Sequence record: PZ452596.1 | DNA length: 64,000 nucleotides | Source: a phage | Reading direction: 5' to 3' (one strand) | Part shown: positions 42,889-47,923 of the stretch, piece by piece | Position numbering within the stretch: position 1 is the first letter of the stretch | Layout of the letters: each line of letters opens with the position of its first letter | Position numbers and translations under genes: made by a program | The notes under the pieces: generated by a model | What the model was told of the DNA's origin: nothing | What the model saw: only the letters and a program-made list of their open reading frames with translations | Databases searched by the model: none

Positions 42889-43308
42889 TTATGCTAAAGC
42901 TGCTTCGCACCATTTTTTAATTTGGAATTCAGGAACTACCATGAACTGGCCTGCAAAAACAATATTGTAGAGCTTGACACCATCTTCTACCCAACGGTCC
43001 GAAATAAAACCAGCGACTTGATTCGTTGTCCATGGAGTTCCATCTGTTGCCGCCGCAATTGTGAATTTATGGTCTTTTACAACTAAAACTGAAGAACAAA
43101 GTTTCCATTTAAATGCGCTTTCTTCTGGCTCAATGAACTGACTTGAGACATAACCAATGTTACCATCAGCGTCACGAACTTTAACCTCGTTACGACCAAA
43201 AACTGGATCACTTACAGAAAGAACTTCAACCAGCTTTCCTGCAACTTTAGAACGAGAAGCAACGGATACATATACGTAATCACCAGTAGAGAGATTTACA
43301 ATATTCAT
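42889..43308 (-). CDS. MotB-region paralog 1
   Basis: 139 aa; shares SRSKVAGKLVEV N-terminal motif and GFISDRWVEDGVKLYNIVF C-terminal motif with next ORF. Confidence 0.5.
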   Translation of the reverse strand: MNIVNLSTGDYVYVSVASRSKVAGKLVEVLSVSDPVFGRNEVKVRDADGNIGYVSSQFIEPEESAFKWKLCSSVLVVKDHKFTIAAATDGTPWTTNQVAGFISDRWVEDGVKLYNIVFAGQFMVVPEFQIKKWCEAALA

Positions 43309-43317
43309 AATAATTCC

Positions 43318-43836
43318 TTAAGCTTTACGAGGAGAAGCATAACGAGTGATTTCAGATTCTTCAACAACCCGGAAGTCACCTAAGAATACGATATTGTAGA
43401 GCTTTTCACCATCTTCAACCCATTGGTCTGTGATGAAGCCACACATCCTATCAGTTTTACTTGGACCAGCGAAATCATCAATATAATCGAATTCTTCATC
43501 AGTTACAAATTCAACGCCTTTACACAACGCCCATTTAAATTGTGCATTAGACTCAGTGGATTCAACTTCTTCAACAGAAGCAAAATGAGAGCTAACACGA
43601 GTTTCCAGAAATTTAGGACTTACGTAAGCGTACTGAGTTTCAGTTTTTCCAGAACTAGGAATGATTCGAACTTTAACTTCTTTAACACGACCAGTACCAT
43701 TAGTACGAAGTCCTACCACTTCAACTAGACGACCTGCAGCTTTAGAACGAGATGCAGACGATACACGCTTAATTTCACCGATAGTAATCATAATTTTTCT
43801 CTCTTTGTTGTTAAGATTTATACTCCGCAGGACCAT
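43318..43836 (-). CDS. MotB-region paralog 2 (MotB-like by position and size)
   Basis: 172 aa; SRSKAAGRLVEV and GFITDQWVEDGEKLYNIVF motifs. Confidence 0.5.
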   Translation of the reverse strand: MVLRSINLNNKERKIMITIGEIKRVSSASRSKAAGRLVEVVGLRTNGTGRVKEVKVRIIPSSGKTETQYAYVSPKFLETRVSSHFASVEEVESTESNAQFKWALCKGVEFVTDEEFDYIDDFAGPSKTDRMCGFITDQWVEDGEKLYNIVFLGDFRVVEESEITRYASPRKA

Positions 43837-43863: not shown

Positions 43864-44301
43864 TTAGCTTACACGAACATTAATCACTGCGCTGCGAGGA
43901 ACTACAGAGTACTCTCCAGCATGAACTACGTTCAGAAGTTCAACACCATCTTCAATCCACTGATCAGTCACCCATCCACCCACAGGATTCGCGAATGGAC
44001 GACGAATATAAACTGCCTTACACAGCAGATCAGTTGGATCTTCAGGTTTTTCAATTTCTGTCAATAGACTAAAATCTTTTTCATAAATAATAAGCGATGA
44101 TACCATTCCATAATAGTTTCTAATTTCAATATACATCATACCGATAAGAATTCCGCTATTAACACTAATAACAGTAAAAGGATATCCGCCAGTTAAACCA
44201 AGAAGTTCACAAAACTTATTATGAGCTGTATTAGACAGTACCGAAAAATTCTTAATTTCATCAAATTTTTTCAATTGATAAACAGCATTATTTTTAATCA
44301 T
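43864..44301 (-). CDS. MotB-region paralog 3 (C-terminal domain only)
   Basis: 145 aa; C-terminal GGWVTDQWIEDGVELLNVVHAGEYSVVP homologous to the two preceding ORFs. Confidence 0.5.
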   Translation of the reverse strand: MIKNNAVYQLKKFDEIKNFSVLSNTAHNKFCELLGLTGGYPFTVISVNSGILIGMMYIEIRNYYGMVSSLIIYEKDFSLLTEIEKPEDPTDLLCKAVYIRRPFANPVGGWVTDQWIEDGVELLNVVHAGEYSVVPRSAVINVRVS

Positions 44302-44311
44302 GATTTTCTCT

Positions 44312-44815
44312 TTAATCTAAAGTAATAAAGCCTTTTAATTCGGCATGTGATTTGCGGAACATTACTTGGTGCCCGCCAATGATAACTTGATCATCTGGAA
44401 CTTCGTATACAGCGAGATAAAATCCTTTAGAAGATAATTCTTCACGCTCTTCTCGTGTGAACCATCTCATCATATCATATTCGCTAGCGAAAGCAAAATG
44501 ATAAAGAGCTATAAACCATCCTGGAATATAGTGATCTACGCCTACATATTCTTCTTTCTCAAAATTAGTATTAATTGCTATATTAGCATTTTTAACTAAT
44601 AATTTGTCTTCGTGTGGAAGAGGAATTCTTTTATTATCATTACTATGATGCATAAAATTAGGTCTGTCATAACCTACGTGTAATAACCACTCTTCGCTCC
44701 ATGAATCTATTATACTCCTGTATGGCGTTATTTGAACACAAAGATTTCGACGTATTGTTATAGCATCTTCATTATTAAGAATACTAAAAGATGATTCAAC
44801 ACGATAAATTTTCAT
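44312..44815 (-). CDS. hypothetical protein (dexA.1 position)
   Basis: 167-aa ORF downstream of dexA with early promoter upstream. Confidence 0.5.
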   Translation of the reverse strand: MKIYRVESSFSILNNEDAITIRRNLCVQITPYRSIIDSWSEEWLLHVGYDRPNFMHHSNDNKRIPLPHEDKLLVKNANIAINTNFEKEEYVGVDHYIPGWFIALYHFAFASEYDMMRWFTREEREELSSKGFYLAVYEVPDDQVIIGGHQVMFRKSHAELKGFITLD

Positions 44816-44829
44816 TTTATTATCCTCAG

Positions 44830-44880
44830 TAGCTATAGTGTTATAATACCATAACTAACCGAGGAAGTAAACAACTTTTT
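44830..44880 (-). promoter_or_regulatory. early promoter candidate downstream of dexA
   Basis: minus strand GTTTAC with GGTATTATAAC -10 region. Confidence 0.4.
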
Positions 44881-45562
44881 ATCGTTTTGTTGGAAGAGAC
44901 AGAGGATCGCACTCTTCCTCTGACGGAGCATCTTCAAGACCCATAGCGTATCGCAAAGCATACTTCATCATCAGGATGTCTTTCGCGCAGTCATGAATAG
45001 AATCATGTGCAACGAATCCATCTAAAGTTCCTTTTGGAAGAGGACACGTGGTCATATCACGAACAAGCAGAAGTGCTTCAATTCTGGTACGAATATCACG
45101 CTGATTCCAGAATTTACAAGGTTCTAACTTAAATGTATCAAGCTCATTCTCGGAAACGCCGTTAAGACGTTGAATATCGCGAATGAGATCGACTAAAATT
45201 GGAAAATCAAACGACATTCCACGGCACCAACCTTGAGATTTCCAAGGATCGATGTTATGTGCATTGATGTAATCATTAAATTTTGCAATACCATCGATAG
45301 TGCTTACATCTTCATCGGATGGTGCAATATTTTTTCGAGCTTCAGGAGACTGGTTTTTCCACCATTCGATAGTGCTTTTAGTAAAAAGACGATGTCCTTT
45401 TTGGCTTTTTAAATCAAATTTGATTTTAATGCCACGTGAAACTAATTCATCAAATGTTTCAACAACTTCTGGGTTAGGGTCAAAGGCAATAACAGCCAAA
45501 TCAATAACAGCTGCTTTTTCACCACTTCCCATTGTTTCAAAATCTATAATAAAATCAAACAT
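44879..45562 (-). CDS. dexA: exonuclease A (DnaQ-like 3'-5' exonuclease)
   Basis: 227 aa, DFETMG exonuclease motif at N-terminus; matches T4 DexA. Confidence 0.9.
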   Translation of the reverse strand: MFDFIIDFETMGSGEKAAVIDLAVIAFDPNPEVVETFDELVSRGIKIKFDLKSQKGHRLFTKSTIEWWKNQSPEARKNIAPSDEDVSTIDGIAKFNDYINAHNIDPWKSQGWCRGMSFDFPILVDLIRDIQRLNGVSENELDTFKLEPCKFWNQRDIRTRIEALLLVRDMTTCPLPKGTLDGFVAHDSIHDCAKDILMMKYALRYAMGLEDAPSEEECDPLSLPTKR

Positions 45563-45819
45563 TAAACTTTCCTCGCTAAATCGCGAATTTGGCCTACAGT
45601 ATAGTCTTGAATATAAACTTTATTAATAGGCTCATCAATAAATTTTGCCATAGATTCAATATCTTTTTGTATCTTTTCAAGACTGTATACTATCTTTGAA
45701 GCTTTTTCACGAATAGTAATATTTTCAGGACCTGGATTTTCTTCAATGACAGCTTTAACATTTGTCATAAGAGATTTAAACTGGTACCAACTCAACTCAA
45801 TCATTAATAATCGCCTCAT
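45562..45819 (-). CDS. hypothetical protein, paralog A (dexA-dda spacer)
   Basis: 85 aa; similar to adjacent 86-aa ORF. Confidence 0.45.
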   Translation of the reverse strand: MRRLLMIELSWYQFKSLMTNVKAVIEENPGPENITIREKASKIVYSLEKIQKDIESMAKFIDEPINKVYIQDYTVGQIRDLARKV

Positions 45820-46057
45820 AAAGATAGCTAATTTCGCCTAAAACGTAATCATTGATTGTAACAGTTTTCACTTCACCACAAAAGAATTCTAACGCAATTA
45901 AATCTCGTTCAATTTCTTCTAATTGAAGCATCAACTTACTAGATTCAATTTTTACAGTTTCACGATTTTTACCATGAGCAATTTCATAAATTTCGCTAAC
46001 TTTATCCTGAAGAAGATAAAACTGATCTTTAGTTATTTCCACGAATAGCTTCCTCAA
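45797..46057 (-). CDS. hypothetical protein, paralog B (dexA-dda spacer)
   Basis: 86 aa; aligns with paralog A (MRxL..E..QF..L...V..I.E...NDY..G.I). Confidence 0.45.
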   Translation of the reverse strand: MRKLFVEITKDQFYLLQDKVSEIYEIAHGKNRETVKIESSKLMLQLEEIERDLIALEFFCGEVKTVTINDYVLGEISYLYEAIIND

Positions 46058-46289
46058 ATTTAATTAGTAATTTACAGACACTTTCATCTAGTGTAATTAC
46101 CGTATCTGTATTACTGTGATATGATTGTTTTTCAATTCGTTTAATTGCTAATATAGTATCACTTATAAGATAAAGCTTATGAAGGAGCTCAGCTCCTGTT
46201 ATCATAACATTAAGATTATCTTGCTTATTAGTATGCTTCCTTATACCATCTATTAGACGATTTAAATATTTTGAATTGATGTTAATCAT
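46029..46289 (-). CDS. hypothetical protein (dexA-dda spacer)
   Basis: 86-aa ORF. Confidence 0.45.
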   Translation of the reverse strand: MININSKYLNRLIDGIRKHTNKQDNLNVMITGAELLHKLYLISDTILAIKRIEKQSYHSNTDTVITLDESVCKLLIKFEEAIRGNN

Positions 46290-46295
46290 ATATCC

Positions 46296-47615
46296 TCACA
46301 CATAAAATACGTCATAACGACCACGGGTAACACCAACATAAAGAAGTTGTTGAGCCAATTCAGCATCTGCATAATGAATACAAGGTGTATAAATGAAAGC
46401 ACGGTCTACAGACATACCCTGAGCTTTATGGAATGTTGATGCAGGAAGTGCTTTCACTTTACTAAACTGTGATTTAGCATCCCAAAAATCACTCCACGGA
46501 GCTTTTCCGCCTTTGTTCCAATTTTTATAAGTTTCTGCCGTTTTACCTAAAAATAGGTTAAACTTATATAGCTCTTCATCAGATGAAATTATTTTAATCT
46601 TTTCACGATAATATTCATCATCGCCGTAAGTTTCTACTGTTAAATCCCAATGACGAATTAAGTATTCTCCATGAACACCACGGGCTTTAACAAACGTTGA
46701 TGTATACTCTGCTTCTATAATACGAACTAATTGTCCGTTATTAAAAATAATTTCTGACACAGGCTTTCCATCAATTTTATATGTTTTAATTAATGGTTCC
46801 TGCATTACAATAATTTCACCAACAATAAAATCTTTATCAGTTTCAAAAATCTTTTTACGAATAATGCTATTTAACTTGTCAACGGATTTATTCGTAAATG
46901 CCATTACGCGATTTTCAAACAAATCATCTAGTGATTTGACAATTGAAAAATAATTTACCATAAAATCGCGTAAAGCGGTATCACCAGTAAATCCACGTAC
47001 TCCATGACCGTCAACAACTTTATCATAAATCCACTTACCGTTGCGAACATCAGTAGCTACATCAATAATAGGAGCATTACTGCGTTTAACTTCAGTAAGT
47101 TCACACTGATAAAAATCTTTGTGTGTAAAGAATGGACTGATATAAGCAGTATTTTCTCCTGGATCAACAGGTCTAATTTGCTTATTATCACCTATTCCAA
47201 TTATAGTACACCAAGGTGGAATAGTTGAAAGCAGAATTTTAAATAGCTTTCTATCATACATTGACACTTCGTCGCAGATTAATACCCTGCATTTAGCTAA
47301 ATCTGGTACTTCCTTCTGTTCAAAAAGAACGTTTTCTTCATACGTAACTGGGTTAATTTTAAGAATACTATGAATAGTACTCGCTTCTTTCCCCGACAGT
47401 TTTGAAAGAATCTTTTTAGCTGCATGTGTAGGAGCTGCTAAAATAATACCAGTTTCACCCGTAGATATTAAAGCTTCAATGATGAATTTAGTAAGAGTAG
47501 TCTTACCGGTACCAGCAGGTCCATTAATAGTTACATGATGTTTCTTTTCTTTAATAGCCCTCATAACGATGTTAAAGGCATTTTTCTGGCCTTCTGTCAA
47601 ATCATCAAATGTCAT
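46296..47615 (-). CDS. dda: Dda DNA helicase (SF1B)
   Basis: 439 aa, Walker A GPAGTGKTT; matches T4 Dda. Confidence 0.95.
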   Translation of the reverse strand: MTFDDLTEGQKNAFNIVMRAIKEKKHHVTINGPAGTGKTTLTKFIIEALISTGETGIILAAPTHAAKKILSKLSGKEASTIHSILKINPVTYEENVLFEQKEVPDLAKCRVLICDEVSMYDRKLFKILLSTIPPWCTIIGIGDNKQIRPVDPGENTAYISPFFTHKDFYQCELTEVKRSNAPIIDVATDVRNGKWIYDKVVDGHGVRGFTGDTALRDFMVNYFSIVKSLDDLFENRVMAFTNKSVDKLNSIIRKKIFETDKDFIVGEIIVMQEPLIKTYKIDGKPVSEIIFNNGQLVRIIEAEYTSTFVKARGVHGEYLIRHWDLTVETYGDDEYYREKIKIISSDEELYKFNLFLGKTAETYKNWNKGGKAPWSDFWDAKSQFSKVKALPASTFHKAQGMSVDRAFIYTPCIHYADAELAQQLLYVGVTRGRYDVFYV

Positions 47616-47923
47616 CGGAAAGTCCCTGCAATTGGAATACTAACAATACGCCCAGTATCTAAAATTCGCTGATATAATCTTTGTGTGTCTACGTCAGGCT
47701 TAACATGTTTAACTTCTATTTTATTAAACCAAAATTTACGTGGAGTCTCAACTAATCTTGGAATTCCCTTACCTAAAGCTAGTTGATACTGCTCTTTAAG
47801 AGTGGTAAATACTTTATCAGCAATCTTCCATTCAAAAAATACAGCAGGACGATGTTCATCGAGCGGAACTGGCGCCGTAAATCCGTCTTTGTCTCGGTAA
47901 ACTATCGCATATACATAAACCAT
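47612..47923 (-). CDS. hypothetical protein (dda.1 position)
   Basis: 103-aa ORF overlapping dda start. Confidence 0.5.
   Translation of the reverse strand: MVYVYAIVYRDKDGFTAPVPLDEHRPAVFFEWKIADKVFTTLKEQYQLALGKGIPRLVETPRKFWFNKIEVKHVKPDVDTQRLYQRILDTGRIVSIPIAGTFR

Follow-up and report, generated by a model that had tools for sequence, protein, structure and literature searches.

The stretch of phage DNA analyzed here (64,000 nucleotides of sequence record PZ452596.1, hereafter the window) carries on its minus strand five genes arranged in the order dda, ORF3, dexA.2, dexA.1, and dexA. Its positions 44800-47700 match Enterobacteria phage RB27 (NC_025448, Tequatrovirus) with 100% identity, and RB3, RB5, RB6, RB7, and RB9 show 99.9% identity to the same region. 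The two large genes encode an SF1B helicase (dda, 46296-47615) and exonuclease A (dexA, 44879-45562). Between them lie three small genes, i.e., ORF3 (annotated RB27_017 in RB27; 46029-46289, 86 aa); dexA.2 (45797-46042, 81 aa, GTG start); and dexA.1 (45562-45804, 80 aa, ATG start). The five genes are tightly packed. A GAGG serving ORF3 (46297-46294) overlaps the TGA stop codon of dda, and the Shine-Dalgarno GAGG of dexA.2 (46055-46052) lies inside the terminal 22-nt segment of ORF3 that precedes the dexA.2 start codon (46043-46064, ATTAAATTTGAGGAAGCTATTC, delimited by alignment with T4). Direct reading of the minus strand gives an overlap of 8 nt between dexA.2 and dexA.1 (45797-45804, ATGATTGA) and a Shine-Dalgarno GAGG for dexA.1 at 45814-45817, 9 nt before the ATG at 45804, while the stop codon of dexA.1 and the ATG of dexA share one base (TAATG). 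Since stops and starts overlap or abut throughout and since each start possesses its own GAGG, the five genes from dda to dexA are probably subject to coupled translation from one early/middle transcript. A search against Rfam revealed no significant match (best E = 0.56), and, within the array, sequences resembling promoters or terminators are no more frequent than expected by chance. The surroundings contain takeover genes (srd, modA/B, and motB).

An earlier note, made on the letters of the window only, had described two tandem, overlapping ORFs of 85 and 86 aa between dexA and dda as paralogs of no known function. Both ORFs are present at this place, on the minus strand (45562-45819 and 45797-46057); the proposed lengths hold for the maximal ORFs, the second of which begins at a TTG codon, but not for the products, which are 80 and 81 aa long. 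The 85- and 86-aa translations align by BLASTP with 32% identity over 76 aa (E = 1e-10), and the profile comparison of the two ortholog alignments by hhalign gives a probability of 95% (E = 3e-8) over 81 columns. When the annotated 80- and 81-aa products are compared by Smith-Waterman, the score is 92, against 27.2 ± 5.1 for shuffled sequences (z = 12.6), and none of 5000 shuffles scored as well. The full-length similarity proposed for the pair thus lies far beyond shuffles, at the opposite of an absence of significant similarity; it is genuine and not compositional. On this sequence evidence, we regard dexA.1 and dexA.2 as diverged copies of one ancestral gene, i.e., as true paralogs.

The true start codons are ATG 45804 for dexA.1 and GTG 46042 for dexA.2, as annotated in RB27, T4, and Sf25. 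The GTG start of dexA.2 was found in all 12 Tequatrovirus sequences examined, and, in the alignment with the single-copy homologs, residue 1 of the latter coincides with these two starts. The 81-aa form is also retained because it fits the T4 protein, a DexA.2 of 9.5 kDa modified at lysine 5 (MEITK; PMC10097602); the computed mass of this form is 9494 Da. The correction of the starts bears on the motifs that the pair had been said to share. QF and I-x-D-Y-x-x-G-x-I are real and invariant in both ortholog groups, but "MRxL" is not protein. The "MR" found upstream of both starts corresponds to xTG-AGG, i.e., to the GAGG Shine-Dalgarno located 9 nt before the true start and read in frame, so that what the two ORFs have in common at "MRxL" is a similar ribosome-binding junction and not a protein similarity.

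The claim of paralogs of no known function was borne out, the two genes being the T4-type dexA.1 and dexA.2, and this first reading was incomplete rather than wrong. Both window proteins belong to phrog_1700 (E = 1.7e-43 for dexA.1 and 6.4e-49 for dexA.2), to which the CRISPRi-ART annotation table also assigns both genes, and all database homologs of DexA.1 and DexA.2 carry the precomputed Pfam match PF26837. Their paralogy is thus already captured in databases through a common PHROG and a common Pfam match; none of the papers that our literature search found discusses it. The product names given to these proteins are another matter. "Dextranase", the RefSeq product name of DexA.2, is a name-propagation error from the gene symbol, without sequence support: Pfam and NCBIfam reveal no glycoside-hydrolase domain in its 81 aa. 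"Exonuclease", carried by DexA.1 or DexA.2 in many records, was rejected in the same way, as we found neither a match to a nuclease family nor catalytic acidic motifs. The phrog_1700 profile is 160 positions long, which at first suggested fused DexA.2-DexA.1 proteins. A 1-nt deletion that fuses the two is present in the ime09 record only (two accessions) and in none of more than 190 related records, and the dexA.2/dexA.1 overlap contains no slippery site. We did not retain a fusion or frameshift reading, and the ime09 fusion was taken as a probable sequencing error or private mutation.

The third ORF of 86 aa that had been noticed next to the pair is ORF3 (46029-46289, minus strand), and here the result goes beyond the initial claim, as ORF3 is a remote member of the same family. 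Compared directly by BLASTP, it has no significant match to either neighbor, and hhalign with shallow alignments restricted to Tequatrovirus did not reveal any link. This link emerged only once the profile combined several genera, using a wider family set, i.e., the small gene located between dda and dexA, collected from other genera. Within this set, the single-copy proteins chain to DexA.2 and DexA.1 by pairwise E values of about 1e-9, notably from DexA.2 to SP18 and onward to Merlin, KP185, and CBH8 (pairwise E 1e-9). Against an HMM of ten members from which it had been left out, ORF3 scores 20.2 bits, while its shuffles have a mean of 1.7 and a maximum of 13.3, so that none of 2000 reaches this score; in the full set of 1562 ORFs, taken from stop to stop in the window and in the loci fetched for comparison, this corresponds to E = 4.4e-5, the best non-member reaching 8.1 bits. 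The phrog_5263 profile, which matches 9 of 11 family members, recognizes all three window proteins, with E = 2.7e-3, 2e-7, and 1.6e-5, the last value being that of ORF3. By hhalign, the multi-genus profile aligns with the ORF3 alignment over 77 collinear columns (E = 4e-4, with a probability of only 34%).

Predicted structures agree with this link. The AF2 model of ORF3 (pLDDT 88.3) has the same topology as that of DexA.1 and superposes with a TM score of 0.94 on the model that BFVD provides for its Sf25 ortholog, which was predicted independently. Its next Foldseek neighbors are small proteins of T4-like phages that also neighbor DexA.1, and DexA.2 is found at TM 0.72-0.75. In the databases, ORF3 is a full-length member of phrog_4967 (E = 1.6e-58); it has no phrog_1700 match, and its homologs carry no Pfam match. 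We consider ORF3 as a third, remote copy of the same ancestral gene, so that the array consists of three copies. The family HMM, applied to the ORFs of the rest of the 64-kb window, did not detect any further member.

The presence or absence of these genes across T-even genomes gives a clear picture. For dexA.1 as for dexA.2, about 480-500 close relatives carry the gene; ORF3 is present in 309 and absent from about 40% of the Tequatrovirus records. T4 has dexA.1 and dexA.2 without ORF3, hence two copies between dda and dexA, where RB27, like the present window, has three; T6 apparently has ORF3, the only indication being the name of the UniRef representative of its cluster. A single copy is found in at least eight genera. 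It occupies the slot in Dhakavirus, Gaprivervirus, Jiaodavirus, Moonvirus, Winklervirus, Kanagawavirus, and Muldoonvirus and, according to tblastn, in Salmonella phages of the S16/Melville type and Enterobacter phages of the CC31/PG7 type. Mosigvirus has no copy, its dda and dexA being separated by a 9-nt spacer, and no Mosigvirus match appeared among the matches listed in the tblastn searches. By sequence, the DexA.1/DexA.2 family is very narrow: a DexA.1+DexA.2 profile (HMMER) obtained only 10 matches among 1.84 billion cluster representatives, none of them fused to a domain already known, the relatives obtained by word-indexed protein searches all had at least 74% identity, and a related-locus search in IMG/VR gave only five loci. 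Two candidates, P0097 and P0099, were discarded as chimeras on contigs of about 0.6 kb. At the level of structure, BFVD neighbors include proteins of Acinetobacter and Aeromonas T4-like phages. In Acinetobacter phage Acj9, the interval from dda to dexA holds two tandem genes (92 and 71 aa); by their lengths, they are presumably two of the Foldseek matches.

The history of the array can be partly retraced. In a neighbor-joining tree, DexA.1 groups with the Dhakavirus single copy (92% bootstrap), to which it is 42-45% identical, and DexA.2 is sister to that pair (97%), while ORF3 branches deep, with a position that the tree leaves unresolved. Of the two, dexA.1 is thus the paralog orthologous to the Dhakavirus single copy. 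The search for DNA repeats found none with the period of a gene and no repeat left at the nucleotide level; the duplications are therefore old. Concerning the variable presence of ORF3, T4 and four other ORF3-less genomes present one common boundary, with the last 22 nt of ORF3 conserved; in all five loci, the same 36 nt are kept, 14 of them inside dexA.2. Besides, ORF3 presence is independent of dexA.2 similarity. For instance, two loci (L019 and L020) have equally similar dexA.2 genes and only the former has ORF3. The common boundary indicates that the absence of ORF3 results from a single deletion (or insertion) event, which has since been spread by recombination.

The AF2 model of DexA.1 (pLDDT 94.7, pTM 0.82) consists of a beta-alpha-alpha-beta-alpha arrangement, with strands at residues 2-5 and 62-65 and helices at 6-22, 26-56, and 67-79. 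Those of ORF3 are predicted at nearly the same places (strands 2-5 and 64-67; helices 6-21, 26-54, and 69-83), and the wider dda-dexA family is predicted to share this fold of about 80 aa. The BFVD neighbors of DexA.1 are only small uncharacterized proteins of T4-like phages (TM 0.6-0.9), and Foldseek against the PDB gave nothing significant, the best match (E = 0.43) being to bacteriocin immunity proteins. As the fold has no PDB match, structure offers no functional hint. The top result of a PDB sequence search, the C-terminus of YacP/Rae1 (E = 0.013), was rejected, its domain E value being about 1. Searches of Pfam (in a set without PF26837), NCBIfam, and PADLOC gave only sub-threshold chance matches (Csn2, ESAT-6, YabA, and MinE); this is how we interpreted the PADLOC match of DexA.1 to Csn2 (E = 0.005), and the three proteins do not belong to the catalogued defense families (PADLOC, which covers proteins of defense systems and not phage counter-defense proteins).

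The sole nearly invariant polar residue of the family is one Asp, located at the beta2/alpha3 junction, in a helix-capping position. The other conserved positions are mainly residues of the hydrophobic core, without a catalytic motif, and an enzymatic activity is therefore unlikely. Charge sets the three paralogs strongly apart: the isoelectric points of DexA.1, DexA.2, and ORF3 are 6.3, 4.4, and 8.8, respectively, DexA.2 being acidic (net charge -9) and ORF3 mildly basic. DexA.2 resembles most single-copy members of the family in being strongly acidic (net -3 to -10).

The three small genes are under purifying selection, with dN/dS values of 0.18 (dexA.1), 0.14 (dexA.2), and 0.16 (ORF3); this selection is 5-13 times more relaxed than that acting on dexA (0.013) and dda (0.033), as is typical for accessory genes. 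In T4, dexA.1 and dexA.2 belong to a transcript initiated upstream of dda.1 and are co-transcribed with dda.1 and dda (bioRxiv 10.1101/2024.04.04.588121); their RNA is early and their proteins, both detected, are middle (PMC9697503 supplements). T4 DexA.2 is, moreover, sufficiently accessible for conjugation to cGAS at K5 (PMC10097602). Both genes are non-essential on E. coli K-12, 24 of 24 TA sites being hit in each of them (HIDEN-SEQ supplement), and both are classed as "Not Fit" by CRISPRi-ART. They are not among the conditionally essential genes reported from T4 transposon screens with RexAB, RnlAB, CBASS, DarTG1, or DarTG2, or in minimal medium, and, in the one comparison table of T4 transposon data that we consulted, neither is depleted (p = 0.93 for dexA.1 and 0.62 for dexA.2). 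Paralog redundancy could mask an effect in such single-gene screens. Taken with the T4 data on dexA.1 and dexA.2, the small genes are real, expressed, and dispensable in the laboratory.

The reading that we favor, to which we give a probability of roughly 45%, is that these products are non-enzymatic accessory binding proteins with different partners; we reach it by exclusion and by analogy. One ancestral small gene holds the dda-dexA slot in most T4-like phages; here it is present as three diverged tandem copies, ORF3, dexA.2, and dexA.1. Their products would act as binding modules devoid of enzymatic activity, i.e., as accessory proteins for takeover or counter-defense, each paralog binding a different host or phage macromolecule after the copies had diverged in surface and charge. 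Different partners are suggested by the divergence of the isoelectric points. Several features argue for accessory binders: the small size, the stable fold, the variable surfaces, and the relaxed selection, together with the copy-number variation, the dispensability in the laboratory, and the location among takeover genes. Against such a role stands the silence of the T4 transposon screens on dexA.1 and dexA.2. The position of the family just upstream of dexA, with overlapping start and stop, is constant in at least nine genera, and a role linked to DexA or Dda would fit it equally well.

This last role constitutes the main rival explanation, in which the small proteins would be accessory subunits, adaptors, or regulators of DexA and/or Dda; for instance, they might tether or modulate these enzymes, with a fixed ratio ensured by translational coupling. 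We judge it to have perhaps one chance in four. Wherever a genus has a family member, one copy directly precedes dexA, its stop codon overlapping or abutting the dexA start, structure-level relatives are found between dda and dexA even in Acj9, and, in T4, the small genes share transcript and timing with dda and dexA. However, T4-like genomes keep their gene order all along this region, which makes adjacency alone weak evidence, and in Mosigvirus dda and dexA are both present, 9 nt from each other, without any small gene, so that neither enzyme needs it. Moreover, dexA and dda evolve 5-13 times more slowly than the small genes, and a number of copies varying from 0 to 3 would be unusual for an obligate subunit.

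Distinctly less probable is a role of the three small proteins in binding nucleic acids or modulating transcription, as for their neighbors Srd, ModA/B, MotB, and Mrh. The genes do sit among transcription modifiers, and weak PHROG matches point in this direction, to phrog_11451 ("CI-like repressor") for the Dhakavirus copies and to phrog_16084 for DexA.1; all are marginal, however, and never reach a significant level for the window proteins. Indeed, only the Dhakavirus copies match phrog_11451 (E = 2e-4 to 4e-3), the best value of the window proteins against transcription-regulation PHROGs is that of DexA.1 with phrog_16084 (E = 0.079), and Pfam reveals no HTH or RHH domain, so that we do not assign them to CI-like repressors or HTH proteins. 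The I-x-DY-x-x-G-[EQ]-[IL] motif recurs in the repeat protein P0107, where it is HTH-like by eye only. The homology of P0107 itself (E = 8.8e-5 summed over six repeats) was rejected, as only the DY..G[EQ][IL] motif is common. Besides, the protein chains stop at the point where a recognition helix would be expected to start, and DexA.2 and most single-copy members are too strongly acidic to fit this role easily. As for functionless or decaying duplicates, or mis-called ORFs whose similarity has no biological meaning, the dispensability in the laboratory, the ORF3-less Tequatrovirus records, and the absence of the family from Mosigvirus could suggest them, but they are very improbable, and data on selection and from proteomics already contradict them, with ORFs intact in 309-531 phage records, dN/dS of 0.14-0.18 for all three genes, T4 proteins detected by mass spectrometry, confident AF2 folds, and a similarity far outside the shuffle distribution.

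The accessory-binder reading can be carried one step further, at the cost of a lower probability. In this more speculative form, which we hold to be doubtful, the dda-dexA slot would be an "accessory hotspot" where one fold, without a PDB match by Foldseek, is repeatedly duplicated, diverged, deleted, and reshuffled, each paralog neutralizing or recruiting a different host factor. It would comprise the 0-3 copies found in Tevenvirinae and the apparently separate pair of Acj9. Its target might be, e.g., a defense system as yet untried, and the paralogs, being redundant in single-gene screens, would have been missed. If this were true, these genes would represent a new family of counter-defense or takeover proteins. 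If they turn out, more simply, to be binders directed at the host or at its defenses, the array would neatly illustrate how tandem duplication diversifies accessory genes, and why redundant paralogs escape single-gene essentiality screens.

The pair as first reported is thus correct, but dexA.1 and dexA.2 are named T4 genes, already catalogued, and their biology is unremarkable for the early region of a T4-like phage. The gains are modest: what is new, and small, consists of the remote link to ORF3, a third paralog not connected before, the corrected starts, and the T4 remnant of ORF3, which, with its one boundary, explains the polymorphism of this gene. To this can be added the description of a positionally conserved, copy-number-variable T4-like family with a predicted fold that has no PDB match.

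Compared with known systems, the window genes are orthologs of those of T4 DexA.1 (NP_049630, P32285) and DexA.2 (NP_049631, P39418), with about 95-96% nucleotide identity; their position and overlaps are the same in T4, and nothing of substance differs. The single-copy gene of Gaprivervirus, Moonvirus, Jiaodavirus, and Winklervirus (and of Kanagawavirus and Muldoonvirus), which corresponds to phrog_5263/phrog_18278, is like those of the window in its dda-dexA slot, its size, and its predicted fold, but it is present in one copy instead of three, and its products share only 20-35% sequence identity with the window proteins. As for phrog_4967, which groups the "hypothetical protein" RB27_017 with RB14 ORF15 and ar1_017, it is not linked to DexA.1/DexA.2 in PHROGs. 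Finally, the same 6-kb stretch contains other products of tandem duplication and divergence among small early/middle accessory genes, i.e., MotB/MotB.1/RB27_010 and ModA/ModB. These sets belong to protein families unrelated to DexA.1/2 and, whereas ModA and ModB have a known enzymatic activity, none is known for DexA.1/2.

In T4, the 21-nt "spacer" that separates dda from dexA.2 (2890-2910 of the T4 comparison locus, L002; equivalent to 46043-46064 of the window) corresponds to the 3' terminus of ORF3, the gene that T4 lacks. The boundary is identical in all five of the ORF3-less genomes that we examined. In phage ime09 (JN202312), a 1-nt deletion in the overlap between dexA.2 and dexA.1 (equivalent to window 45806-45812) creates a single fused ORF of 159 aa, located at 1216-1695 of locus L018. 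This deletion is probably a sequencing error, since it is restricted to the ime09 record among more than 200 related ones. The fused entry also explains why the profile of phrog_1700, the PHROG family common to DexA.1 and DexA.2, has 160 positions.

The product names of these two proteins, both encoded on the minus strand (DexA.2, 45797-46042; DexA.1, 45562-45804), are misleading in RefSeq (NC_025448 and NC_000866) and in many GenBank records. DexA.2 is called "dextranase" in RefSeq, and many database entries, including UniRef clusters, label both proteins "exonuclease". We found no sequence support for either name in DexA.1 or DexA.2, and both names appear to have been propagated from the gene symbol dexA.

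The window carries another set of tandem paralogs on the minus strand, just downstream of dexA, i.e., RB27_010 (42889-43308), annotated as MotB-like, motB (43318-43836), and motB.1 (43864-44301). Comparison of the motB/motB.1 pair gave an E-value of 4e-11 with 30% identity, and, as judged by eye, the translations of all three genes have [TS]D[QR]W[VI]EDG..L.N[IV]V in common as a C-terminal motif.

The C-terminal motif of the dda-dexA family, I-x-DY-x-x-G-[EQ]-[IL], is matched at E = 8.8e-5 (the sum for all repeats) by P0107, a metagenomic protein of 352 aa in which a unit of about 47 aa occurs six to seven times. This unit contains ADYIAGELT...ICEKYNI and looks HTH-like by eye; we treat its likeness to the family as one of motif level only.

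In some other phages, the dda-dexA interval contains two to four small ORFs, as observed in Klebsiella phage Roth23 (L014, 3845-4438), Krischvirus Whisky (L013, 3891-4302), and Acinetobacter phage Abraxas (L015, 3862-4927). None of these ORFs matches the sequence HMM of the family. Foldseek comparison of predicted models gave matches in related Slopekvirus and Acinetobacter phages, which suggests that some of these small ORFs may share the fold of the family.
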